This document shows, piece after piece, positions 1,663-54,698 of a stretch of DNA of 64,000 bases. Each line of letters opens with the position of its first letter. Position 1 is the first letter of the stretch. The notes under the pieces were generated by a model. The model was not told the DNA's origin, did no database searches, and saw only the letters and a program-made list of their open reading frames with translations. This DNA is from Candidatus Omnitrophota bacterium (lineage in GTDB: Bacteria; Omnitrophota; Gorgyraeia; Gygaellales; Profunditerraquicolaceae): the NCBI GenBank assembly GCA_043823435.1, contig JBDRAV010000016.1, positions 1,122 through 65,121 of the forward strand, written 5' to 3'. The position numbers were made by a program, and so were the translations under genes.

Positions 1663-1739
1663 AATTCTCTCCGATATGTTAACTTAATTATTGTACATAT
1701 TTTAAAGCATTTGTCCACAAGAAAATTCAGAAAAAAATC

Positions 1740-1904
1740 AGGGACGTCTTTAAATGTAATCGGAAAGCGTTTATGCTATTATTCGAAAGGGTGTCCCCTC
1801 GAGCGACATTTTTCATTCAACTGTCACCTTTTTCCTGTCTGCCCTGTCTGTCCTGACTGCTGTCAGGCAGGGGGAAGGCGGGGGTTGAATTCAATGGTGT
1901 CCCT
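1740..1904 (+). repeat. AGGGAC...GTCCCT-bounded composite element, copy R0 (165 nt)
   Basis: Begins AGGGACGTCTTTA (1740-1752). Contains AAAGGGTGTCCCC (1786-1798), CCTGTCTG tandem words (1834-1850) and the hairpin CCTGAC-tgct-GTCAGG (1852-1867). Ends GGTGTCCCT (1896-1904). Module order matches the copies at 12213 and 34936. Confidence 0.7.
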
Positions 1905-2298: not shown

Positions 2299-3769
2299 GA
2301 GAAATAATATAGAATTAAACAAGTTAACCGCACATGAGCTTATCGAGAAGATAAAATCAGGAGCAACCAAGCCCGGGGAGATAGTTAGTTCGTTAAAAAG
2401 AAGAATTAAGGATATAGACCATAAAATTAATGCCTACGTACGACATCTTGACTCTGAAGCCCTAGATTCCCAACTCCCAGCTTCCAGCTCCAATCTATAT
2501 TTAAAAGGCATACCTGTCTCTATCAAAGATAATATTTGCACTAAAGGTTATAATACCGAATGCTGCTCTAAGATCCTGGAGGGGTTTAATCCGCCGTACG
2601 ATGCCACAGTAATCAGGAAATTAAAAGAATCTGGTGCGACCGTATTCCCGGTAAAGACCAATATGGATGAGTTTGCCTTTGGTTCATCAACGGAGAATTC
2701 CCGCTATGGCCCGACACATAACCCCTGGGATTTAGAGACTGTTGCAGGTGGTTCTTCTGGAGGTTCGGCATCGGCAGTAGCTTCAGATGAGGCGATAATG
2801 GCCTTGGGTTCGGATACGGGCGGCTCTATCCGTCAACCTGCATCTTTCTGTGGCGTGGTCGGGCTTAAGCCTACTTATGGGAGGGTTTCACGTTATGGGT
2901 TGATTGCATTCGCCTCAAGCCTGGACCAGATCGGTCCCCTCACCAAAGATGTCAGGGATAGCGCGATCTTAATGAATGTCATTTCCGGATACGACCACTA
3001 TGATTCTACTTCCGTAAATATTGATGTGCCGGATTATACCGCATCATTGGGGGCGGATATCAAGGGATTAAAGATCGGCACTCCAAAGGAATATTTTATT
3101 GCTGGTATGGATAAAGAAGTCAAGATAATAGTGGAGGAAGCTATAGATAAACTAAAGAGCCTGGGAGCCGAGCATAAACCGGTTTCATTGCCGAATACCC
3201 GGCATGCAATACCGGTTTATTATGTTGTTGCTACGGCAGAGGCGAGCTCCAATTTAGCGCGCTTTGACGGAGTGCAGTATGGTTTTAGAACCGAGAGCCG
3301 AGAGCCGAGAACCGAGAACCGAGTGATAGATATGTATAAAGGGACACGCGGAGAAGGGTTTGGGCAGGAAGCCAAAAGAAGGATTATTCTTGGAACATTC
3401 GCTTTATCGCACGGATATTACGACGCATATTATCTGCGGGCTCTAAAAGTAAGGACCATGATAAAGCAGGATTTTGACAGGGCCTTTACAAAATTTGATT
3501 GTTTGGTTACCCCTACGTCCCCTACGCCCGCATTTAAAATAGGTGAAAAAGCAAAAGATCCCTTAGAGATGTACCTTTCGGATATATATACCATATCAGC
3601 GAATCTATCGGGGATACCGGCGATATCCGTACCCTGCGGTTTTACCAGTAAGGGGCTGCCGGTAGGATTGCAGATTCTGGCGAAGCCGTTTAACGAAGGA
3701 TTGTTGTTCAAGGCCGCTTATGCATATGAACAAAGCACGGAGTGGCATAAGATGAGCCCCAAATTATAA
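2297..3769 (+). CDS. gatA: Asp/Glu-tRNA amidotransferase subunit A (amidase family)
   Basis: 490 aa. Amidase signature GGSSGGSASAVAS..GSDTGGSIRQPASFCG. Lies between gatC and gatB. Contains two heptamer arrays (2468-2495, 3288-3322). Confidence 0.96.
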   Translation: MRNNIELNKLTAHELIEKIKSGATKPGEIVSSLKRRIKDIDHKINAYVRHLDSEALDSQLPASSSNLYLKGIPVSIKDNICTKGYNTECCSKILEGFNPPYDATVIRKLKESGATVFPVKTNMDEFAFGSSTENSRYGPTHNPWDLETVAGGSSGGSASAVASDEAIMALGSDTGGSIRQPASFCGVVGLKPTYGRVSRYGLIAFASSLDQIGPLTKDVRDSAILMNVISGYDHYDSTSVNIDVPDYTASLGADIKGLKIGTPKEYFIAGMDKEVKIIVEEAIDKLKSLGAEHKPVSLPNTRHAIPVYYVVATAEASSNLARFDGVQYGFRTESREPRTENRVIDMYKGTRGEGFGQEAKRRIILGTFALSHGYYDAYYLRALKVRTMIKQDFDRAFTKFDCLVTPTSPTPAFKIGEKAKDPLEMYLSDIYTISANLSGIPAISVPCGFTSKGLPVGLQILAKPFNEGLLFKAAYAYEQSTEWHKMSPKL

Positions 3770-3773
3770 GATA

Positions 3774-3853
3774 GCACCAGGTGCAAAGCCAATCGGGCAC
3801 CAGGTGCGAGATTAGGTTTGCAGACGGTACAAGATAGGATTGGCACCCGGTGC
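3774..3853. repeat. Phased array of the 11-bp palindrome GCACC-W-GGTGC (four sites, 23-nt period)
   Basis: GCACCAGGTGC at 3774 and 3797, a degenerate GCAGACGGTAC at 3820, and GCACCCGGTGC at 3843. Spacers contain CCAATCGG / GATTAGG / GGATTGG. Confidence 0.8.
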
Positions 3854-8885: not shown

Positions 8886-9389
8886 ATGGCGTTTAAAAAG
8901 AAGATTGAAGAGAAGATTTTGGATGTGGATGTAGATATGCAGGGCAATATGGTCTTTAAAGACCCGGTTAACCTGCGTATCAACGGTAAGTTCGAAGGGA
9001 TTTTGCAGATGAGGGGAAACCTTACAATCGCATCAACGGCTGTCGTCTCGGCGGATATTATAGGCGAAAATATTATCATTGACGGTAGGGTCAAAGGCAA
9101 AATAGTGGCAAAGGAGAGGTTGACGCTTTTGCCCGCAGCTGTCGTGGAGGGGGAGATATACCCTTCTAAACTTAATGTTGCGGAAGGCGCGGTGCTGGAG
9201 GGCAGGTGCTGTATGCTTCATGATTTTATGAGTGCCGATGAACTCGCGCATTATTTAGAGGTAGATTTGAATTCGATACTGGAATGGGCAAACTCCGGCA
9301 AAATGCCCGGTTTGAAAGAGGGTAATAACTGGAGGTTTGAAAGGAAGACTATTGATTCTTGGGTTGCCTCGGGTAAAGTAGGAAAATAA
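8886..9389 (+). CDS. Bactofilin-domain protein with a C-terminal excisionase-type helix-turn-helix (HTH_17-like)
   Basis: 167 aa from ATG 8886 (AGGAGG at 8873-8878; the track start 8841 overlaps the MgtC-family gene). Bactofilin beta-helix repeats (INGKFEGIL..GNLTIAST..ADIIGENIIIDGRVKGKIVAKERLTLLPAAVVEGEIYPSKLNVAEGAVLEG). C-terminus is ADELAHYLEVDLNSILEWANSGKMPGLKEGNNWRFERKTIDSWV. Confidence 0.75.
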   Translation: MAFKKKIEEKILDVDVDMQGNMVFKDPVNLRINGKFEGILQMRGNLTIASTAVVSADIIGENIIIDGRVKGKIVAKERLTLLPAAVVEGEIYPSKLNVAEGAVLEGRCCMLHDFMSADELAHYLEVDLNSILEWANSGKMPGLKEGNNWRFERKTIDSWVASGKVGK

Positions 9390-9703
9390 TGACAGAAAAA
9401 CTTTTAACCATAAGGGATGTTTCTCTGACCTTGGGTATTTCCGAGAAAGAGGTGATGGACCTTGTAGAAAATAAGCAACTGGAGGCTTACAGGGTAGGAG
9501 GGGTGTATCTTAGGTTCAAGCAGGAGCAGATAACGGAGTTCAGGAAGTCTTCTAAACCCCTTGCACATAAACACAAAACCGCGGTTTCACATAAGTACGC
9601 CTTAAAAGACTCAATCAGCGATTTCTTCTATTTTAATGATTTCTATATATTAGCTGCTTTGATCATATTGCTTATTCTGGTTATTATATTCCGGGGTTAT
9701 TGA
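9389..9703 (+). CDS. Excisionase-type HTH protein with a C-terminal transmembrane helix
   Basis: 104 aa. LLTIRDVSLTLGISEKEVMDLVENKQLEAYRVGGVYLRFKQEQITEF, followed by the hydrophobic FYILAALIILLILVIIF. The start overlaps the upstream stop (TAATG). Confidence 0.7.
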   Translation: MTEKLLTIRDVSLTLGISEKEVMDLVENKQLEAYRVGGVYLRFKQEQITEFRKSSKPLAHKHKTAVSHKYALKDSISDFFYFNDFYILAALIILLILVIIFRGY

Positions 9704-12214: not shown

Positions 12215-12394
12215 GGGCGTCTTTATTATTAAAACAGAGATGATTCTAATCCAAAGCAGGGACGACTTTGTTGCCAAAGAAAAGGGTGTCCCTTTTAAGA
12301 TTTTATTTTTAGGGGACACCTTTCGGATTGACAGAAGAAACGGCTTTCCTTTTAGATTCAAAGGCGTCCCCCGATTGAATTTAAAGACGTCCCT
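12213..12394 (+). repeat. AGGGAC...GTCCCT-bounded composite element, copy R1 (182 nt)
   Basis: AGGGGCGTCTTTA (12213-12225, overlapping the acsC TAG stop), GGGACGACTTT (12259-12269), AAAGGGTGTCCC (12281-12292), GGGGACACCTTT (12312-12323), AAAGGCGTCCCC (12360-12371), TAAAGACGTCCCT (12382-12394). The boxes can pair as three nested helices. Confidence 0.8.
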
Positions 12395-12410
12395 AAAATA
12401 AGCAAGAGAG

Positions 12411-26524: not shown

Positions 26525-26541
26525 ATAAGTAACGGGTTTAC

Positions 26542-26614
26542 GCCGGCGTAGCTCAGTCGGTAGAGCAGCTGTTTTGTAAACAGCGGGTCGGGGGTTCAAT
26601 TCCTCTCGCCGGCT
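26542..26614 (+). tRNA. tRNA-Thr (UGU). CCA is not encoded.
   Basis: Acceptor GCCGGCG/CGCCGGC, anticodon arm GCTGT-TTTGTAA-ACAGC, T loop TTCAATT. Confidence 0.9.
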
Positions 26615-26621
26615 TAAATGA

Positions 26622-26719
26622 GCGCACAAATTACGAATACTGTAGTATGAGTAATTTGTATGCGCGAATTTATTCCGAGCATACGCAAAAATTATGACAG
26701 AATTTTTGCGTGTTTATGC
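26622..26719 (+). repeat. Two long hairpins in the tRNA-Thr/tRNA-Tyr spacer
   Basis: GCGCACAAATTAC (26622-26634) pairs with GTAATTTGTATGCGC (26651-26665). ACGCAAAAATT-ATGACAG-AATTTTTGCGT (26683-26711) is a perfect 11-bp stem with a GACAG-containing loop. Confidence 0.75.
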
Positions 26720-26743
26720 GAAGAGTTAATTATTGACAATGAT

Positions 26744-26826
26744 GGGTAGGTACCCAAGTGGCCAAAGGGGGCAGACTGTAAATCTGCTGCGCTTGCGCTT
26801 CAGAGGTTCGAATCCTCTCCTGCCCA
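26744..26826 (+). tRNA. tRNA-Tyr (GUA), long variable arm. CCA is not encoded.
   Basis: Acceptor GGGTAGG/CCTGCCC, anticodon loop CTGTAAA, long extra arm typical of bacterial tRNA-Tyr. Confidence 0.9.
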
Positions 26827-34922: not shown

Positions 34923-34935
34923 ACCCCAGAAACCC

Positions 34936-35098
34936 AGGGACGTCTTTATTACCAAAGCAAAGGGTGTCCCAGATTCAAAGCAAAGGCTGTCCCCTCTTAA
35001 TATGGGCACCCTTATGATTGACGCAAGAAACCACTTCCCCTGCCGGCAGGCAGTGATTGGGTCAGAGGACGTCCCCTGATTGATTTAAAGGCGTCCCT
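34936..35098 (+). repeat. AGGGAC...GTCCCT-bounded composite element, copy R2 (163 nt)
   Basis: AGGGACGTCTTTA (34936-34948), AAAGGGTGTCCC (34959-34970), AAAGGCTGTCCCC (34982-34994), GGGCACCCTT (35004-35013), CCCCTGCCGGCAGGCAG (35037-35053), GGACGTCCCC (35067-35076), AAAGGCGTCCCT (35087-35098). Colinear with R1. Confidence 0.8.
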
Positions 35099-35110
35099 AA
35101 GAAAAGGAAG

Positions 35111-36700: not shown

Positions 36701-37913
36701 GGCGTTAATAGTTCAGAAATTCGGCGGTACCTCCGTAGCTAATGTGGAACGGATACGCAAGGTTGCCCGTCGCGTAGTAAGTTGTCGTAAAAAAGGCTAT
36801 GACCTGGTAGTGGTGGTTTCCGCTTTGGGGGATACTACTGACGAGTTAATTGATTTAGCAAGTAAGATTACCTTTGATCCGTCAGAGCGAGAAATGGATA
36901 TGCTCCTGTCGACCGGAGAGCAGATTTCCGTAGCGCTTCTGGCTATGGCGATACATAAATTAGGATTTGAAGCTATATCCTTTACTGGAGCGCAAGTCGG
37001 GATTATTACCGATACCAGTCATACCCGTGCTCGGATTATAAAAATCAATGCCGAAAAAATAAAAGAAGAGTTAAGACGCGGCAAGATCGTCATTGTGGCG
37101 GGCTTTCAGGGAGTAGCCCTGAATCAGGATATCACTACATTGGGCAGGGGTGGTTCGGATTTGACCGCTGTCGCCCTGGCAAAGGAGCTCTCGGCGCGCG
37201 AATGCGAGATTTATACCGATGTGGAAGGGATATATACTGCTGATCCACGCATAGAGCCGAAGGCCAGGAAAATTAAAGCCATTACCTATGACGAGATGCT
37301 GGAGATGGCTTCATTGGGTGCCCAGGTGATGCAGGCGCGCTCTATTGAAGTGGCAAAAAAGTTCAATGTAGATATACATGTGCGCTCCAGTTTCAATGAC
37401 GAGGTCGGAACAATGATTACCAAGGAGGTCAAGAGAATGGAAGACGTGGTTGTAAACGGCGTAACCCTGAACAAAAATGAGGCCAAGATTACGGTTTGTA
37501 ATGTCCCTGACCGCCCGGGTATAGCGGCAAAGATATTCAAGCAGTTAGCCGATAAAGGGGTAAGCGTAGATATGATAGTCCAGAATGTTAGCCATACCCG
37601 CCAGACGGATATATCTTTTACCATAAACAAAGCAGATGTGTACAAGACTCTGAAGATTGCTAAGAAAGTGGCTATGGGTATAGGGGCAGGGCAAGTATTG
37701 CAGGATAATGATGTTGCGCGGGTTTCTATAGTCGGTGTAGGAATGAAGTCTCATCCGGGTGTCGCAGCTACCATGTTCGATTCTTTAGCGGATAATAAGA
37801 TCAACATCGAAATGATTTCTACCTCGGAAATCAGCATTTCGTGTATTATAAAAAAGAGGTTTGCCGAGAAAGCGGTCAAGGCGTTGCACGACAAATTCGG
37901 CTTATCTAAATAA
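36693..37913 (+). CDS. lysC: Aspartate kinase (with ACT domains)
   Basis: About 406 aa from ATG 36693 (GGAGAAG at 36681-36687; overlaps the cstA stop by 8 nt). VQKFGGTSV, VVVSALGDTTDEL, GRGGSDLTA motifs. Confidence 0.94.
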   Translation: MHKALIVQKFGGTSVANVERIRKVARRVVSCRKKGYDLVVVVSALGDTTDELIDLASKITFDPSEREMDMLLSTGEQISVALLAMAIHKLGFEAISFTGAQVGIITDTSHTRARIIKINAEKIKEELRRGKIVIVAGFQGVALNQDITTLGRGGSDLTAVALAKELSARECEIYTDVEGIYTADPRIEPKARKIKAITYDEMLEMASLGAQVMQARSIEVAKKFNVDIHVRSSFNDEVGTMITKEVKRMEDVVVNGVTLNKNEAKITVCNVPDRPGIAAKIFKQLADKGVSVDMIVQNVSHTRQTDISFTINKADVYKTLKIAKKVAMGIGAGQVLQDNDVARVSIVGVGMKSHPGVAATMFDSLADNKINIEMISTSEISISCIIKKRFAEKAVKALHDKFGLSK

Positions 37914-37971
37914 GGGACACTTCTTGACCCAATCAAGGGACACTTCTCCGGCCAATCGGAGAAGTGTCCCC
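37913..37971 (+). repeat. AGGGACACTTCT-type element (59 nt) with a perfect 13-bp hairpin
   Basis: GGGACACTTCT at 37914 and again at 37937 (23 nt apart). GGGACACTTCTCC (37937-37949), loop GGCCAATC, GGAGAAGTGTCCC (37958-37970). The first A is the last base of the lysC TAA stop. Confidence 0.85.
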
Positions 37972-43161: not shown

Positions 43162-45147
43162 GTGGAAAAATTCAAGTTAGTCTCTGATTATAAGCCTTGC
43201 GGCGACCAGCCCAGGGCGATAAAAGAGCTATCTGGCTCGATTGGGTCGGGTAATAAGCACCAGACTCTGCTCGGCGTGACCGGATCCGGGAAGACCTTTA
43301 CTCTGGCCAATGTTATCGCCAGGATAAACCACCCTACACTGGTTATCTCCCATAATAAAACCCTGGCCGCGCAACTCTATTCGGAATTCAGGGAATTCTT
43401 CCCGCATAACGCCGTAGAATATTTTGTCAGTTATTACGATTATTATCAGCCCGAGGCATATATACCTTCAACAGATATATACATAGAAAAGGACGCTTCT
43501 ATTAACGACAGGCTGGACCGCCTGCGTCTTTCTGCGACCACTTCGCTTATGTCACGCCGCGATTGTCTTATTGTGGCTTCTGTGTCTTGCATATATAATC
43601 TTGGTTCACCGGACGAATACCGCGATTTACTTGTTCTTGTTGAAAAAGGGGAGTCTGTGTCGCGCGATAACTTGATATCAGGACTTGTTAAAATACAATA
43701 TGAGAGGAACGATTACGAGTTTATCCGCGGGAGGATAAGGGTCAGGGGCGATGTCGTAGAAATATTTCCTTCGTATGAAGAGGTCGCGCTGCGTCTAGAG
43801 CTTTTCGGAGATAAGGTAGAGAAGATATCGCAGATAAACCCTGTTTCGGGAGAAGTCCTGAATTCCCTGGATAGGATAGCGATATATCCGGCCAAACATT
43901 TTATATTCTCAGGAGAGGGGCTTGGCAGAGCGCTTAAGTCTATCGGGCAGGAGTTAGAAGAGAGGCTGAATATCTTAAGGGGTAAGAATAAATTATTGGA
44001 GGCCGAGCGCCTTGAATCCCGCACTAAATATGATATGGAGATGCTTAAAGAGATAGGCTATTGCCATGGTATCGAGAATTATTCGCGGCACCTTTCAGGC
44101 AGACCTCAAGGCTCAAGGCCGTATTGCCTCATTGATTATTTCCCGGATGATTTTCTCGTGGTAGTCGACGAGTCTCACGTAACCTTGCCTCAAATAAGGG
44201 GCATGTATGAAGGTGACCGCGCCAGGAAAGAGGTGTTAGTAGAATACGGATTCAGACTCCCCTCATGCCTCGATAACCGGCCTTTGAAGTTTGAAGAATT
44301 CAGGGACATAGTAAAACAGCAGGTATTCGTTTCCGCAACGCCCGATGAATACGAGATAAAAAATAGCCAGGGTCTTGTCATTGAGCAGATTATCCGGCCT
44401 ACCGGCCTGGTTGACCCTAAAATTATAATCAAGCCATCCGATGGCCAGATCGAAGACTTGATTAAAGAAGTAAAGAAGCGTGCCCGACGAAATGAGCGCG
44501 TCCTTATCACGACTTTAACTAAAAAATTGGCCGAAGACTTAAGTGTCTATTTACAGGAGAAGGGATTAAAGGTAAAATATTTACACTCCGAGGTAGAGAC
44601 TATTGAACGTTCAAGGATTCTCAGAGAATTAAGGCGTAAAGAATTTGATTGCTTAGTGGGAATAAATCTGTTAAGGGAGGGCCTGGACCTGCCCGAAGTT
44701 TCCCTTGTCGCAATATTGGACGCAGATAAGGAAGGTTTCTTGAGATCCGCTACTTCGCTGATACAGGTATCCGGGCGTGTAGCGCGCAATATAAACGGGA
44801 CCGTGATCATGTATGCCGATACCGTAACTGGCTCAATGAAGAAGGCAATCGCCGAAAGCGAAAGGAGAAGGGATAGGCAGTTCGATTTTAACAGGAAAAA
44901 TAAGATTACGCCGCGGTCTATTAAGAAGAGCATAAAACATGGGATAGAGGATTTAGAAGGAGCGCAGGAATTTGTGGCAGATTTAACCGGCCAGGATAAA
45001 GATGAATATGAATTAAGCAGGTATATTTCGGAACTAGAATACGAGATGGAACTTGCAGCGAGGAACCTGCAGTTTGAGAAAGCAGCGGTAATCCGCGATA
45101 AGATAAGAGACCTAAAACCGATCAACAGTAACAGGGACACTTCTTGA
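43162..45147 (+). CDS. uvrB: Excinuclease ABC subunit B
   Basis: 661 aa. [13 protein letters not shown]-terminal UVR domain ([11 protein letters not shown]). GTG start. The last four codons and the TGA stop lie inside the repeat at 45133. Confidence 0.97.
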
Positions 45148-45249
45148 CCCAAAGTAAGAAGTGTCCCCTAGAAGGTAATCTTAAGTAAATGGGGACATTT
45201 CTCCGATTAGCATGAGAAGTGTCCCTCGATTGGGACGAGAAGTGTCCCT
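45133..45249 (+). repeat. AGGGACACTTCT-type element (117 nt) with three hairpin units
   Basis: GGGACACTTCT (45134-45144) / AGAAGTGTCCC (45157-45167). GGGACATTTCTC (45192-45203) / GAGAAGTGTCCC (45214-45225), with one G-U pair on the plus-strand transcript. GGGAC (45232-45236) / GAGAAGTGTCCCT (45237-45249). The first 20 nt are identical to 37913-37932. Confidence 0.85.
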
Positions 45250-45263
45250 AAGAGGGAGGAGAG

Positions 45264-46043
45264 GTGCTGTTAGCCGTTGATATAGGAAATACGAATATAA
45301 ACCTGGGATTATTCAAAGATAAGAGGATAATCAAAAGATTTATTATTCTTACGAAAGCCGGGCATTATAAGCTTCGCCTTCAAAAGATAATTAAGCGTAA
45401 TAAGGTTGATGACGCAATAGTCTGCGGCGTAGTTCCGGCGGCCGAAGAGGCCATAGGAAAAGCGCTGAGGGGATCCCTGGGTAAGCGGCCCTATATTATA
45501 GGTAAGGGGATAAGGGTGCCTATAAAGAACATTTACCGGAAGCCCCGCCAGGTAGGAGAGGACCGCCTAGTAAATGCCTATGCAGGAGTTATGCTCTACG
45601 GCGCACCGCTCATTATGGTTGATTTCGGTACCGCGGTCACATTTGATATTGTTTCAAGAAAGAAAGAGTACCTCGGGGGCATGATCATCCCGGGGCTTGG
45701 GATATCCCTGGAAGCTCTTAATATGCGGACAGCACTTCTGCCTAAGATAAAACTGGAAGAGCCTAAGGAATTCATAGGCCGGGACACTAAAAACAGCATG
45801 TTAAGCGGGATAATTTACGGGTTCGCCGCTCTCAGCGATGATCTGGTTACGAGAATAAGGCAGAAGATAGGAAGAAATGCGAAGGTAATCGGCACTGGCG
45901 GTAATATCGGCTTAATTGCTAAATACTGCCACAGGATAGATAAGATAGATAAGGATTTGACCCTAAAAGGCCTGAGCCTTATTTATAGAAATTTGTTAGA
46001 TTCTGCGGTAATGTATCGTAGCATTAAGGGGAGTATTCATTAA
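45264..46043 (+). CDS. coaX: Type III pantothenate kinase
   Basis: 259 aa. LLAVDIGNTN, VDFGTA, GTGG motifs. GTG start after GAGGGAGGAGAG. Confidence 0.93.
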   Translation: MLLAVDIGNTNINLGLFKDKRIIKRFIILTKAGHYKLRLQKIIKRNKVDDAIVCGVVPAAEEAIGKALRGSLGKRPYIIGKGIRVPIKNIYRKPRQVGEDRLVNAYAGVMLYGAPLIMVDFGTAVTFDIVSRKKEYLGGMIIPGLGISLEALNMRTALLPKIKLEEPKEFIGRDTKNSMLSGIIYGFAALSDDLVTRIRQKIGRNAKVIGTGGNIGLIAKYCHRIDKIDKDLTLKGLSLIYRNLLDSAVMYRSIKGSIH

Positions 46044-46055
46044 TAAAAATTTTCC

Positions 46056-46083
46056 TTGACAAAAAATTTTTTTCTTTTATAAT
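46056..46083 (+). promoter_or_regulatory. groESL promoter (sigma-70 type)
   Basis: TTGACA (46056-46061), 16-nt spacer, TATAAT (46078-46083). It abuts the CIRCE operator. Confidence 0.7.
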
Positions 46084-46109
46084 TAGCACTCTGGAATTAA
46101 GAGTGCTAA
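46083..46109. promoter_or_regulatory. CIRCE operator (HrcA binding site)
   Basis: TTAGCACTC-TGGAATTAA-GAGTGCTAA is a perfect match to the CIRCE consensus TTAGCACTC-N9-GAGTGCTAA. It lies between the promoter and groES. Confidence 0.95.
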
Positions 46110-48145: not shown

Positions 48146-48175
48146 ACCGCAGATTCTGGGAATAAGCAATAAAAA

Positions 48176-48206
48176 GGGCGAAGCCAATGCTTCGCCCTTT
48201 TGCTTT
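48176..48206 (+). terminator. Rho-independent terminator of groESL
   Basis: GGGCGAAGC-caat-GCTTCGCCC (9-bp GC-rich stem) followed by TTTTGCTTT. Confidence 0.85.
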
Positions 48207-48213
48207 ATGGGGG

Positions 48214-48270
48214 GGGACAGGTGCCCGATTGGATTTGCACCTGGTGCCAGATTAGCTTTGCACCAGGTGC
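48214..48270. repeat. Phased array of three GCACC-W-GGTGC-type palindromes (23-nt period), inverted relative to the 3774 array
   Basis: GGGACAGGTGC (48214, a hybrid GGGAC/GGTGC box), GCACCTGGTGC (48237), GCACCAGGTGC (48260). Spacers contain CCGATTGG and CAGATTAG. Confidence 0.8.
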
Positions 48271-48282
48271 AAAAAATAATTA

Positions 48283-48311
48283 TTGACAAGATTGCGGCAT
48301 TAAGGTAAAAT
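48283..48311 (+). promoter_or_regulatory. Candidate promoter for the guaB-like/guaA operon
   Basis: TTGACA (48283-48288), 17-nt spacer, TAAAAT (48306-48311). It would give a leader of roughly 150 nt. Confidence 0.5.
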
Positions 48312-51167: not shown

Positions 51168-51171
51168 TTTG

Positions 51172-51262
51172 GTTCGCAAGTTCGTAAGTTCTTCAGTTCG
51201 TAAGTAATTAAAGAATTGTTATGAACCAATGAACTTTAGAACTAAAGAGCAATAGAGCTTTT
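51172..51262. repeat. Two opposed octamer arrays filling the guaA-dnaE spacer
   Basis: GTTCGCAA GTTCGTAA GTTCTTCA GTTCGTAA (51172-51203), then GAACCAAT GAACTTTA GAACTAAA GAGCAATA GAGCTTTT (51223-51262). GTTC and GAAC are reverse complements. Confidence 0.75.
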
Positions 51263-51263
51263 A

Positions 51264-54200
51264 ATGCCTCACTCCGACTTCATCCACCTCCATCTACATA
51301 CCCAATACAGCCTTCTTGACGGCGCCTGCCGTATTCCCAAGCTTTTAGAGCGGGCAAAGCAATATAAGATGGATTCCCTTGCCATTACCGACCATGGCAG
51401 CATGTTCGGCGCAATAGATTTTTACCTGGAAGCCCAGAAGGCCGGTATAAAACCCATTATAGGATGCGAGATGTATATCGCACCATCAAGCCGCCTGGAG
51501 AAGGCATCCGCAGGTATTGATGAAGCAGCATACCATCTTATACTTCTTGCGCGCGATGAAGCCGGATACCAAAACCTGATAAAACTTGTATCCATAGGGT
51601 ACCTGGAAGGTTTTTATTACCGGCCGCGCATTGACAAAGAAATCCTATCCCAGCATCAGAAGGGCCTTATTGCTATGACTGCCTGTCTTAAAGGAGAAAT
51701 ACCCTCATTCTTACAGCAGAGGCGTTTTAACGACGCCCTGAAGACCGCTGATGATTTCCTGAATATTATGGGTAAAGAAAATTTCTACCTGGAGGTACAG
51801 GGCAACAGCATCCCAGAGCAGAAGATAGTAAATGAAGGATTGATAAAAATATCCAAAGAGCTGAACATACCGCTTGTCGCTACCAACGATGTGCATTACC
51901 TTTCAAGGGAGGATGCCGTAAGCCACGAAGTCTTGCTCTGCATCCAGACCCAGTCCACGCTGAATGACCCTAACAGGATGCGTTTCCAGACTGACGAATT
52001 CTATTTCAAATCCCCTCAGGAAATGAAGGAGCTTTTTAAGGATATACCGCAAGCGCTCGCTAATACTCTGGAGATTGCCGGCCGCTGCAATTTAGAGCTG
52101 GACTTTTCCAAGATGCATTTACCGCGCTATGATCCACCCGATGGCAAAAACAAAGAAGATTATTTAAGAGAACTTAGTGAAATAGGATTAAAGGAAAAAT
52201 TCCCGGAAGCGACCCCCGATATAATGACGCGCCTAGAACACGAACTAGGCCTTATTAAAGACAGAGGATTTGTAAGTTATTTCCTGATCGTCTGGGATTT
52301 CATACACTACGCAAAGAATAATAATGTTCCCGTCGGCCCGGGGCGTGGCTCAGTTGCGGGGAGCCTAGTAAGCTATCTTCTCGGGATAACAGATATCAAT
52401 CCTTTGAAGTACGGGTTGCTTTTTGAGCGCTTCCTTAACCCTGAGAGGCTTGGTCTCCCCGATATTGATATTGATTTCTGTTACGAGAGAAGGAACGAAG
52501 TCATTGATTACGTGACCAGAAAATACGGAAAAGGAAACGTTGCCCAGATCATCACATTTGGAACAATGCAGGCGCGCGCGGTAGTCAGGGACGTGGGCAG
52601 GGTAATGGGGATGAGCTATGCCGACGTTGACCGTATCGCCAAGATGATACCTCCTGATCCTGGTATTAGTCTCAAAGACGCATTAGAAAGCGAGACCGAA
52701 CTAGGAAAGCTTTATAGAAATGATACGCAGATAACTAAGTTGATCAATACCGCCATCTCCCTGGAAGGCCTTAACCGCCACGCCTCCACGCATGCCGCGG
52801 GTGTTGTCATTTCCGATAAGCCTCTGGATAACTATACGCCTTTGTTTGAGACCCAGGACGGACAGATAACCACCGGCTACAGCATGGGGGTCCTGGAAAA
52901 GATAGGTTTGCTGAAGGTAGACTTTCTGGGATTACGTACACTGACCGTGATCGATGAAACACGCAAGATAATAGAAAATACCAGGGGCATAAAAATAGAC
53001 ATTAAAAACATCTCTCTTGATGACGGCAATACTTATAAGCTTCTGAATTCAGGCCAGACTATCGGGGTCTTTCAGGTAGAGAGTTCCGGCATGCGCGACT
53101 TATTGAAAAAACTCCAGCCTGACCGTTTTGAAGACTTAATCGCGCTACTTGCTTTATACCGTCCCGGTCCTATCGGTTCGGGCATGCTTGATGATTTTAT
53201 GCAGCGCAGGCACGGACGCGTGTCCATAAAATACCAACACCCGAAGCTGGAAAATGTTCTTAAGGAGACTTATGGTATAATCGTATATCAGGAACAGATC
53301 ATGCAGATAGTTTCCGAACTCGCCGGATTCAGCCTCGCGCAGGCAGATATGTTACGCCGCGCCATAGCCAAGAAGATACCCGAGGTTATGGAACAACAGA
53401 GGAAGAACTTTATTTTAGGATGCATCAAAAACGATATCAGCGAATCCGTATCAAACCGTATATTCGACCTTATAGAGTATTTTGCAGGATACGGATTTAA
53501 CAAATCGCATTCAGCAGCGTACGCCATGATCTCTTACCGTACGGCATACCTGAAAGCTAATTTTCCGGTAGAGTTTATGTGCGCGCTCCTTACCTCAGAA
53601 AGAGACAATACCGACAAGATAGTTGAATATGTAAATGAATCCTACCGTATGGGGATAAAAGTCCTGCCTCCCGATATCAATGAAAGCGAGGCTCTATTTA
53701 AGGTTGTGGACGAGAAGACAATACGTTTTGGTCTGCTTGCGGTGAAAAACGTAGGGGGCGGAGCTGCCGAATCCATAGTCAGCTCAAGGCAGGAGGGGGC
53801 GTTTAGCTCCCTGGAGGATCTCTGCCAGCGCATTGACTCAAGGCTGGTTAACCGTAAGGTCCTGGAGAGCATGATAAAATGTGGTGCGCTGGATTCATTT
53901 GGTTTGCCAAGGGCGCAGATGTTTGTTTCTCTTGCCACAATCATGGAGATATCTTCCAGGGCGCAAAAGGATAAGGCAAAAGGGCAGATCTCATTCTTTG
54001 ACGCAGGGTTCGCGGAAGATTCATTTAAGAGCACGGCAAACAATTTGCCCTCCATAAAAGAGTGGCCCGAGCCGCAACTGCTTGCTTTTGAGAAAGAGAT
54101 GCTGGGATTTTACGTTACGGGACATCCTCTGGCGCGCTATGCCCATGAACTTAAACGCTTTACCTCTTCATCCACGGCTAACCTCCACGAGCATGAGGAC

Positions 54201-54698
54201 GGCAGAGAGATAAAGATAGTAGGGTTAATTGCCAAAATCAAACAGACAGTTACCCGCGCGAAACAGGAGAAGATGGCTATATTGAAATTAGAGGATCTTG
54301 ATGGAGCTGTTGAGGTTCTAGTTTTTCCGGCTGCCTTCCAGAAATCTTCAAGATATATCCAGCCCAGTACCGTGGTCCTTGTGAAAGGCAGGGTTGACCG
54401 TAGGGAGGATATACCTAAAATCGTAGCCAATGACCTTTTTCCTATGGACGAAGTATATAAATTGGTCACCAGCGTAAATATAAACCTTTCAGGAGTACGC
54501 GAAAACCTTTTTGAGAGCTTAAAAGAGTTGTTGGTTCAATACCCCGGTAAGATACCTATATATATGCACATGGATACGCCTGCCAGGTCAAGGGTGCATC
54601 TTGTTGTCGGGGAAGGGCTTTACGTTTCTCCTTCCGATAAATTAATCCGGGAGATAGAATCGCTGTTAGGCGAGGACCGCGTATCTTTAGTGATATAG
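51264..54698 (+). CDS. dnaE: DNA polymerase III alpha subunit
   Basis: 1144 aa. PHP domain FIHLHLHTQYSLLDG, catalytic GPGRGSVAGSLVSY..DIDIDF, OB fold near the C-terminus. Confidence 0.97.
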   Translation: MPHSDFIHLHLHTQYSLLDGACRIPKLLERAKQYKMDSLAITDHGSMFGAIDFYLEAQKAGIKPIIGCEMYIAPSSRLEKASAGIDEAAYHLILLARDEAGYQNLIKLVSIGYLEGFYYRPRIDKEILSQHQKGLIAMTACLKGEIPSFLQQRRFNDALKTADDFLNIMGKENFYLEVQGNSIPEQKIVNEGLIKISKELNIPLVATNDVHYLSREDAVSHEVLLCIQTQSTLNDPNRMRFQTDEFYFKSPQEMKELFKDIPQALANTLEIAGRCNLELDFSKMHLPRYDPPDGKNKEDYLRELSEIGLKEKFPEATPDIMTRLEHELGLIKDRGFVSYFLIVWDFIHYAKNNNVPVGPGRGSVAGSLVSYLLGITDINPLKYGLLFERFLNPERLGLPDIDIDFCYERRNEVIDYVTRKYGKGNVAQIITFGTMQARAVVRDVGRVMGMSYADVDRIAKMIPPDPGISLKDALESETELGKLYRNDTQITKLINTAISLEGLNRHASTHAAGVVISDKPLDNYTPLFETQDGQITTGYSMGVLEKIGLLKVDFLGLRTLTVIDETRKIIENTRGIKIDIKNISLDDGNTYKLLNSGQTIGVFQVESSGMRDLLKKLQPDRFEDLIALLALYRPGPIGSGMLDDFMQRRHGRVSIKYQHPKLENVLKETYGIIVYQEQIMQIVSELAGFSLAQADMLRRAIAKKIPEVMEQQRKNFILGCIKNDISESVSNRIFDLIEYFAGYGFNKSHSAAYAMISYRTAYLKANFPVEFMCALLTSERDNTDKIVEYVNESYRMGIKVLPPDINESEALFKVVDEKTIRFGLLAVKNVGGGAAESIVSSRQEGAFSSLEDLCQRIDSRLVNRKVLESMIKCGALDSFGLPRAQMFVSLATIMEISSRAQKDKAKGQISFFDAGFAEDSFKSTANNLPSIKEWPEPQLLAFEKEMLGFYVTGHPLARYAHELKRFTSSSTANLHEHEDGREIKIVGLIAKIKQTVTRAKQEKMAILKLEDLDGAVEVLVFPAAFQKSSRYIQPSTVVLVKGRVDRREDIPKIVANDLFPMDEVYKLVTSVNINLSGVRENLFESLKELLVQYPGKIPIYMHMDTPARSRVHLVVGEGLYVSPSDKLIREIESLLGEDRVSLVI

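Follow-up and report, generated by a model that had tools for sequence, protein, structure and literature searches.

Background

The repeats described here are closest to four kinds of known system: the REP/BIME elements of E. coli and other enterobacteria (repetitive extragenic palindromes in bacterial interspersed mosaic elements), the REPINs with their RAYT transposases, the small dispersed repeats (SDR) of cyanobacteria, and palindromic or miniature elements such as the Rickettsia palindromic elements (RPE), Correia/NEMIS and ERIC. REP/BIME are present in hundreds of copies per genome and their known binding partners are gyrase, IHF and Pol I. They are short, imperfect, stem-loop-forming palindromes of intercistronic regions and the 3' regions of operons, grouped in mosaic clusters with alternating orientation and conserved linker motifs; the number of copies per cluster varies, the consensus is kept between species and the locations are not, and the hairpins are expected in mRNA. 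These latter features are shared by the repeats of a metagenome-assembled genome (MAG) of Candidatus Omnitrophota and of its relatives. We know of no sequence resemblance between the Omnitrophota repeat and the enterobacterial REP consensus. The host belongs to another phylum, the unit consists of an 11-bp box and a 12-bp linker and not of a palindrome of about 35 bp as in REP, and the units follow a strict 23-bp register in which conservation is highest in the linker, common to several box families. The resemblance that we suggest, by analogy, is therefore one of manner of working, and we do not claim membership of the REP/BIME family.

REPINs are inverted doublets with a cognate RAYT, a Y1 HUH transposase (PMC3116915). 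Inverted doublets that form a long hairpin are likewise found here (locus A of the window and contig L127), in a family that is dispersed and conserved in sequence, but the window carries no RAYT gene and the Omnitrophota arrays have up to six boxes and are not doublets. The SDR of Nostocaceae, reportedly described by Elhai et al. in 2008, are said to be 21-27 nt long, to insert into varied sequences, other repeats among them, and to show mobile or dispersed behaviour. They are similar to the present repeats in the very small size of the unit (21-27 nt versus 23 bp), in dispersal and in association with hairpins, and SDR-bearing genomes are, like the window, also rich in tandem heptamer repeats. 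They differ in phylum and in sequence, and the Omnitrophota units are ordered in palindromic arrays with conserved termini. Cyanobacterial SDR are mentioned in PMC5861425 and PMC3116915.

RPE can lie in frame within unrelated housekeeping genes, to which they add a peptide (PMC10969869). RPE and MITEs such as Correia/NEMIS and ERIC (reviewed in PMC10969869) share with the Omnitrophota elements a palindromic structure, a non-coding size, a mostly intergenic location and terminal inverted repeats. The Omnitrophota elements fall within the 50-500 bp of MITEs, and in two relatives, although not in the window, arrays are carried in frame by folC and by an M23-peptidase gene, as RPE would be. They are set apart from RPE and MITEs by their 23-bp modules, by lengths that change in 23-bp steps and by the lack of a consistent target-site duplication. 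We know of no related full-length insertion sequence.

Omnitrophota have yet to be cultivated and are represented almost solely by metagenome-assembled genomes, and a full-text literature search found no published description of their repeat content or of these repeats. We consider it probable that the arrays belong to a new repeat family of this phylum, palindromic and dispersed in the manner of REP/BIME, MITEs or SDR.

Two arrays of an 11-bp palindrome

The window, by which we mean the whole 64-kb stretch of DNA that was analysed, contains four exact copies of GCACCWGGTGC (at 3774, 3797, 48237 and 48260) where 0.00 are expected from 100 dinucleotide-preserving shuffles, and these are confined to two places, named locus A and locus B (Table 1). 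With at most two mismatches, 10 matches were obtained for 7.3 expected, and the only one above noise is the copy GCACCCGGTGC at 3843. Tandem Repeats Finder gives a period of 23 bp at both loci, and the register of one 11-bp box and one 12-bp spacer is strict in both arrays. ACCWGGT and CCWGG within the box are presumably restriction- or methylation-type palindromes.

The original prediction, which placed one array between gatA and gatB and the other between the groEL terminator and the guaB-like promoter, is borne out: the arrays are real and form a genuine, strongly non-random repeat family, all copies in the window are intergenic, and locus B lies between a terminator-like hairpin and a promoter-like site of guaB3. 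Coincidence, or a tandem duplication confined to this DNA and unconnected with any family, would agree with the short length of each array and with nothing else. As no match was expected and these boxes and spacers recur in eight or more independent contigs of other assemblies, we reject this explanation with near certainty.

Table 1. Coordinates and composition of the elements and of adjoining features (window positions unless a contig is named)
Feature	Position	Strand	Description
Locus A, GCACC-type array	3774-3853	.	fills the gatA-gatB spacer; order GCACCAGGTGC AAAGCCAATCGG GCACCAGGTGC GAGATTAGGTTT GCAGACGGTAC AAGATAGGATTG GCACCCGGTGC
Locus A boxes	3774-3784, 3797-3807; 3820-3830; 3843-3853		GCACCAGGTGC (first two); GCAGACGGTAC (variant); GCACCCGGTGC
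Locus A spacers	3785-3796; 3808-3819, 3831-3842		AAAGCCAATCGG (inverted type); GAGATTAGGTTT, AAGATAGGATTG (direct type)
Locus B, GCACC-type array	48214-48270	.	groEL-guaB3 junction; order GGGACAGGTGC CCGATTGGATTT GCACCTGGTGC CAGATTAGCTTT GCACCAGGTGC
Locus B boxes	48214-48224; 48237-48247; 48260-48270		GGGACAGGTGC (conserved left-terminal box); GCACCTGGTGC; GCACCAGGTGC
Locus B spacers	48225-48236; 48248-48259		CCGATTGGATTT; CAGATTAGCTTT (both direct type)
Terminator-like hairpin	48172-48201	+	3' of groEL, directly upstream of locus B; kept in L174 and L176
Promoter-like TTGACA-17-TAAAAT	48283-48311	+	upstream of guaB3; 11/12 matches
GGGAC-type sister element	37914-37970	.	aspartate kinase-cimA; GGGACACTTCT TGACCCAATCAA GGGACACTTCT CCGGCCAATCGG AGAAGTGTCCC; fold z -6.2; nhmmer E 2.6e-16
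Composite GGGAC-type element	45134-45248	.	uvrB-coaX; left hairpin, ~23-nt linker, right module; fold z -5.9
Composite GGGAC-type element	12228-12406	+	cdhD-RACo gene; nhmmer E 4.9e-35
Composite GGGAC-type element	34925-35110	+	upstream of cstA; paralogue of 12228-12406; nhmmer E 8.2e-27
Weaker GGGAC-type element	1739-1835	.	upstream of the gatC promoter region; nhmmer E 6e-5
Inverted 7-8-bp repeat arrays, long hairpins	32989-33063; 51168-51263; L176 8014-8114		z -3.6 to -6.0
Inverted 7-8-bp repeat arrays, long hairpins	L177 11462-11549; L179 8328-8473		z -3.6 to -6.0

Locus A starts 4 nt past the gatA stop codon and ends 12 nt ahead of the gatB ATG. It is one long imperfect palindrome, in which the outer boxes 1 and 4 pair, as do the inner boxes 2 and 3 and, between these pairs, spacers 1 and 3, and locus B is equivalent to its right half. 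The two arrays had been predicted to be reverse complements of each other, spacers included. This is true of spacer 1 of locus A, the sole spacer there that is the reverse complement of the locus B spacers, but spacer 2 has the same orientation as CAGATTAGCTTT of locus B (10/12 identical positions) and spacer 3 is also direct. At locus B, the promoter-like site begins 12 nt past the last box, and AAAATAATTATTGACAAG is kept in L174 and L176. The hybrid first box noticed at 48214 is real and recurs as the usual left-terminal box of arrays in other genomes (GGGACAGGTAC in L176, GGGAACAGGTAC in L137, GGGGACAGGTGT in L130 and GAACAGGTGC in L155 and L168).

A wider family of 23-bp modules

All four tandem repeats of 23-bp period that Tandem Repeats Finder detects in the window belong to one superfamily. 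The two outside the GCACC arrays, at 37912-37957 and 45214-45266, are built on the box GGGACACTTCT or its complement AGAAGTGTCCC, and the 11-mer GGGACACTTCT is present in 8 copies in the window where 0.75 are expected. The spacer core CCGATTRG is common to the GCACC arrays and to the GGGACACTTCT family, both in the window and in L170, L171 and L174; GGGAC-type spacers with this core include CCGATTAG, TCGATTGG and CCGATTGG. Across sub-families, of which the boxes are GCACCWGGTGC, GGGACACTTCT, GGGACACCCTT, AGAAACGTCCC and GGACCGTTTCT, the box is the variable part, and the spacer and the 23-bp period are the constant part.

Two GCACC and five GGGAC-type loci are found in the 64 kb, which corresponds to about one element per 9 kb. 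The elements measure 57-190 bp and their outer boxes are inverted copies of each other, that is, terminal inverted repeats; spacers are of the inverted type CYAATCGG on the left and of the direct type CCGATTRG on the right, so that the whole element is an imperfect palindrome. In the uvrB-coaX element the right module has the spacers CCGATTAG and TCGATTGG, and the stop codon of uvrB (45145-45147) falls inside the first GGGAC box. The element at 12228-12406 has boxes AAGGGTGTCCC and AAAGRCGTCCC with the spacer CCGATTGAATTT, and its cdhD-RACo junction is also occupied in L171 and L177. A related element is found in L170 (9555-9623), at the position orthologous to that of the weaker element 1739-1835.

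The GCACC arrays had also been linked to AGGGAC elements. Both sub-families share the 23-bp period, the CCGATTRG spacer and a terminal GGGACAGGTRC box, and the array of L130 is mixed, with a GGGAC-type box AGAAACGGTAC alongside GCACC boxes. Given the shared terminal box and the mixed array the link to the GGGAC elements holds. The hexamer AGGGAC itself is not enriched in the window (25 observed, 24.2 expected). A nhmmer profile built from six GGGAC composite elements did not detect the GCACC arrays, and the common descent of the sub-families thus rests on the shared spacer, period and terminal box. The best reading of these sequence comparisons is that the GCACC arrays would be one sub-family of a modular dispersed palindromic repeat in Candidatus Omnitrophota.

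Arrays in related genomes

GatA and GuaB3 of the window are 100% identical to proteins of a Candidatus Omnitrophota MAG, on a 90.8-kb contig. The closest other genomes are syntenic with the window and share with it up to 81% identity in GatA and 91% in GuaB3. A pattern scan of genome contigs with a variable gap of 5-35 returned chance matches in high-GC actinobacteria and, among the matches listed, one true relative, the Omnitrophota MAG L027. A fixed-gap scan of metagenomes returned 50 contigs, of which about eight, of low GC, are true relatives, the rest being coding or simple repeats in GC-rich DNA. GCACC arrays with the same spacers are thus present in L027 and in about eight low-GC metagenome contigs. 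For one of these, L155, all source-named matches of IlvC are Omnitrophota or Omnitrophica. Pattern scans of viral contigs gave no match at first and then six chance matches without complete boxes, and hence no link to viruses.

In these relatives, GCACC arrays occupy the junctions ilvC-leuA, rpsG-fusA, PilZ-GH94, fmdE-cdhD and that of two ABC permease genes, and the neighbouring genes are unrelated to those of the arrays in the window. Neighbouring units are 100% identical in L027 and L168, which suggests recent duplication.

A degenerate or miniature CRISPR-like array would explain the regular alternation of repeat and spacer and nothing more. CRISPR arrays have repeats of 23-50 bp, unique spacers of similar length and cas genes close by. 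Here the repeats measure only 11 bp, the 12-bp spacers are not unique but kept from locus to locus and from genome to genome, arrays also lie within genes, and no cas genes are found among the ORFs of the 64-kb window; the conserved spacers and the unit sizes refute this explanation, to which we give practically no chance.

Arrays within genes were found in L027 and L165. In L027 the array is read through in frame within folC, where it encodes 32 residues. The flanking parts of this FolC, residues 2-93 and 126-470, match residues 14-98 and 101-429 of the Thermotoga maritima protein, so that the array-encoded stretch falls between the residues aligned with 98 and 101 and about 30 residues are extra. 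In L165 the array lies in frame just past the M23 domain of a 1001-aa ORF, as judged from this ORF alone.

Two further observations concern coding sequence. A 7-bp tandem repeat AGAACCG/AGAGCCG (5.3 copies, 3287-3323) lies inside gatA of the window and encodes RTESREPRTENRV, a loop that has 4 residues fewer in P0002, the closest homologue. Exact copies of GCACCAGGTGC occur in leuA of L187 (2475), L188 (2734) and L189 (6891); they encode a conserved EQ-APGA motif and were discarded as a coding coincidence.

Turnover at orthologous junctions

The gatA-gatB junction has four boxes in the window and one in L170, where the 27-bp spacer reads TAAGATA-GCACCAGGTGT-TAAGTTAATACT-ATG, a difference of exactly 69 bp (3 x 23). 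The same junction is filled with hairpins of unrelated sequence in L171, L177 and L179. At fmdE-cdhD, L177 has a six-box array and the site is empty in the window and in L171. From one end to the other the L177 array follows locus A collinearly, the variant box GCAGACGGTAC included, apart from an additional stretch of exactly 46 bp (2 x 23) in its middle. At groEL-guaB3, a three-box array is present in L176 at the site of the window, with spacer 2 inverted relative to the window (11/12), and L174, the closest relative, has no array there and carries another repeat, about 370 bp long. The ilvC and leuA genes, compared in genomes whose IlvC proteins are 93% identical, overlap in L187-L189 and are separated by another hairpin element in L186 and by a GCACC array in L155. 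The near-identical L171, L172 and L173 show no array polymorphism among them. Positions kept across species are groEL-guaB3 (window and L176), uvrB-coaX (window and L174) and cdhD-RACo (three genomes).

The repeat of about 370 bp is itself dispersed (L174 9541-9880; L176 16329-16440 and 7320-7371; L177 ~9290-9560). It has no copy in the window and no credible Rfam match, the sub-threshold matches falling only on the adjacent terminator hairpin.

The L177 array is flanked by the 7-bp CTGGAGA, of which the empty site in the window has one copy, the flanks of the L155 array form an imperfect duplication of ~11 nt and no target-site duplication is visible at the window loci. These flanks are inconsistent, and a target-site duplication of fixed length is not supported. 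TA flanks are frequent without being universal.

These distributions bear on the proposal that the palindromes serve a regulator at operon-internal regulatory points. A dimeric regulator or a nucleoid protein would then bind the boxes, or the CCGATTRG spacers, as operator-like sites, and their arrangement in arrays would serve cooperative binding. Box and spacer are indeed conserved across genomes with 76-81% GatA identity, two elements adjoin promoter -35 regions (locus B next to 48283 and the element upstream of the gatC promoter), and a comparison of the window with L176 shows the orientation of the spacers to be unconstrained relative to transcription, in keeping with recognition at the level of DNA. 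However, the flanking genes have no common function, the junctions are unrelated, arrays are present, absent or replaced at orthologous junctions even among close relatives, others lie in frame within folC and the M23-peptidase gene, no regulator gene adjoins the arrays, and the premise that the boxes form no hairpin is false (see below). In addition, from the geometry of B-DNA, a period of 23 bp corresponds to about 2.2 helical turns and would place successive sites off-face. We found no conserved position at the promoters of a coherent set of genes, such as an operator array would occupy. The distribution thus makes a dedicated regulator-binding array unlikely, and the arrays are probably not dedicated regulatory protein-binding sites; we regard operator-like function as improbable, while the conservation of the sequence makes binding of a protein, as such, possible.

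Two known types of site were also inspected. A sigma-54 promoter at the spacer-box junction TTGGCACC was rejected as GG and GC are 8 nt apart and not 10, and an IHF site was rejected as the consensus WATCAANNNNTTR is absent from the spacers.

Predicted hairpins and possible constraint

The view that the stem is too short for a stable hairpin, from which protein binding had been argued, did not survive. As the box is self-complementary it can pair with a neighbouring box, and the folding of a single palindrome on itself is not required. At 48234-48273 of locus B, adjacent boxes pair across the spacer in a 14-bp perfect stem with a 12-nt loop, and box-spacer-box units in general have stems of 11-14 bp and loops of 12 nt. 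The predicted RNA fold of locus A reaches -37.1 kcal/mol (z -5.8) on the plus strand and -39.7 kcal/mol (z -7.9) on the minus strand, and that of locus B -30.8 kcal/mol (z -3.8). Whole arrays are predicted to fold with -30 to -59 kcal/mol (z -3.8 to -9), and the z-scores of all folded elements range from -2.6 to -9.0. Strong structure is widespread between genes: 10 of 21 spacers of the window have a z-score below -3, compared with 0 of 21 matched coding controls, and inverted arrays of 7-8-bp tandem repeats make up many spacers, in the window as in its relatives (Table 1). Rfam 15 at gathering score found five tRNAs in the whole window and no match to the repeats.

The composite element between uvrB and coaX allows constraint to be considered. 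It is collinear in the window and L174, and in every one of the five boxes ..ACTTCT/AGAAGT.. has given way to ..ACCCTY/ARGGGT... At six base pairs both sides have changed, and 97.7% of cells are still paired, compared with 45-68% when the partners are slid as a control. Concerted change of the boxes, and near-identity of box and spacer between genomes at 76-81% GatA identity, fit gene conversion within elements plus replacement by another sub-family, because AAGGGTGTCCC boxes exist in the window at 12282 and 34963. They equally fit selection on the hairpin or recognition by a protein: persistent positions, near-identical sequence and compensatory stem changes are also expected of a selected functional element. 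The conserved box and spacer and the compensatory changes thus leave room for a recognising protein or for a role of the RNA hairpin.

It is accordingly possible, although we find it doubtful, that the hairpin itself is what is selected, as an intercistronic RNA structure (mRNA stabiliser, RNase processing site or translation spacer) for which the fold matters and not the sequence. Strong hairpins of unrelated sequence stand between gatA and gatB in four lineages (window, L171, L177 and L179; z -3.6 to -5.8), stems co-vary between orthologous elements, half of the window spacers are strongly structured, and elements stop 5-20 nt ahead of the next start codon, leaving the Shine-Dalgarno sequence free. 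Yet the hairpin is dispensable, as deduced from the short single-box gatA-gatB spacer of L170 and from the overlap of ilvC and leuA in L187-L189, where there is no spacer at all; arrays in frame within coding sequence also count against such selection, and locus B lies past a terminator-like hairpin, possibly outside the groESL transcript. Selection on the fold would in any case be compatible with our reading of the arrays as repeat elements.

Possible mode of propagation and function

Under the repeat-element reading that we prefer, blocks of 23 bp would be strung together into an element that can fold to a long hairpin in single-stranded DNA or in a transcript. Arrays would gain and lose units through slippage or through unequal recombination between boxes, which best accounts for length changes in steps of 23 bp, and spacers would flip by recombination between the flanking palindromic boxes (hairpin-loop inversion), the best account of the inverted spacers. 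New sites may be colonised by recombination or with the help of a trans-acting enzyme. Among the ORFs of the 64-kb window, all of them housekeeping, neither a transposase nor a RAYT or other mobilising gene was found. Resident hairpins would probably act on polycistronic mRNA in the manner of REP/BIME, by protecting or processing 3' ends between cistrons, or else be neutral; an effect on mRNA is plausible by analogy with REP elements.

A further, rather unlikely, proposal is that the 23-bp modules are the recognition substrate of a protein dedicated to them in Omnitrophota, perhaps a domesticated HUH/RAYT-like nuclease or else a recombinase, and that the hairpins have been co-opted as punctuation. 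Such a protein would read the CCGATTRG loop and the box stem, and would be responsible both for the spread of the elements and for their constant sequence throughout the phylum. In these very small genomes, the hairpins would have become the standard punctuation between the cistrons of operons. If true, this would be an undescribed system of mobile element and host, beyond another REP-like repeat, and a recognising enzyme, should there be one, is best sought through the shared CCGATTRG loop.

As a sequence-conserved family, the repeats can serve as a marker for strain typing and for assembly checks. They explain odd gene calls, such as a stop codon within a repeat or inserts of 30 residues in conserved enzymes, and they offer a concrete handle on the punctuation of operons in small genomes. 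Orthologous sites that differ by 23-bp indels and by flipped spacers offer a clean case, from nature, of slippage and hairpin-loop inversion.

Other features of the window

Directly upstream of groES, past a promoter-like sequence TTGACA..TATAAT, lies an inverted repeat TTAGCACTC-N9-GAGTGCTAA (46083-46109), which we take to be a CIRCE-type HrcA operator; the same arrangement of CIRCE-type repeat and promoter at groES is found in L174 and L176. No ORF of at least 80 aa is listed on either strand in positions 1-1660, which resemble a region of L170 ending in a minus-strand start codon; a minus-strand gene probably continues beyond the left end of the window, and the plus-strand ORF 1648-1923 is probably spurious.

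A tRNA cluster (26525-27338 and 29520-29841; five tRNAs by Rfam) is interspersed with repeated hairpins, such as TTTTCCCGACAAGGGAAAA, which lies at 26829-26853 and recurs some 100 bp further downstream, and repeats of the CCGACAGTAAAAGACAG type near 29660. Finally, dnaE of L174 (12829-17529, 1566 aa) contains an intein (Intein_splicing and LAGLIDADG domains), whereas dnaE of the window (51264-54698, 1144 aa) is without intein.
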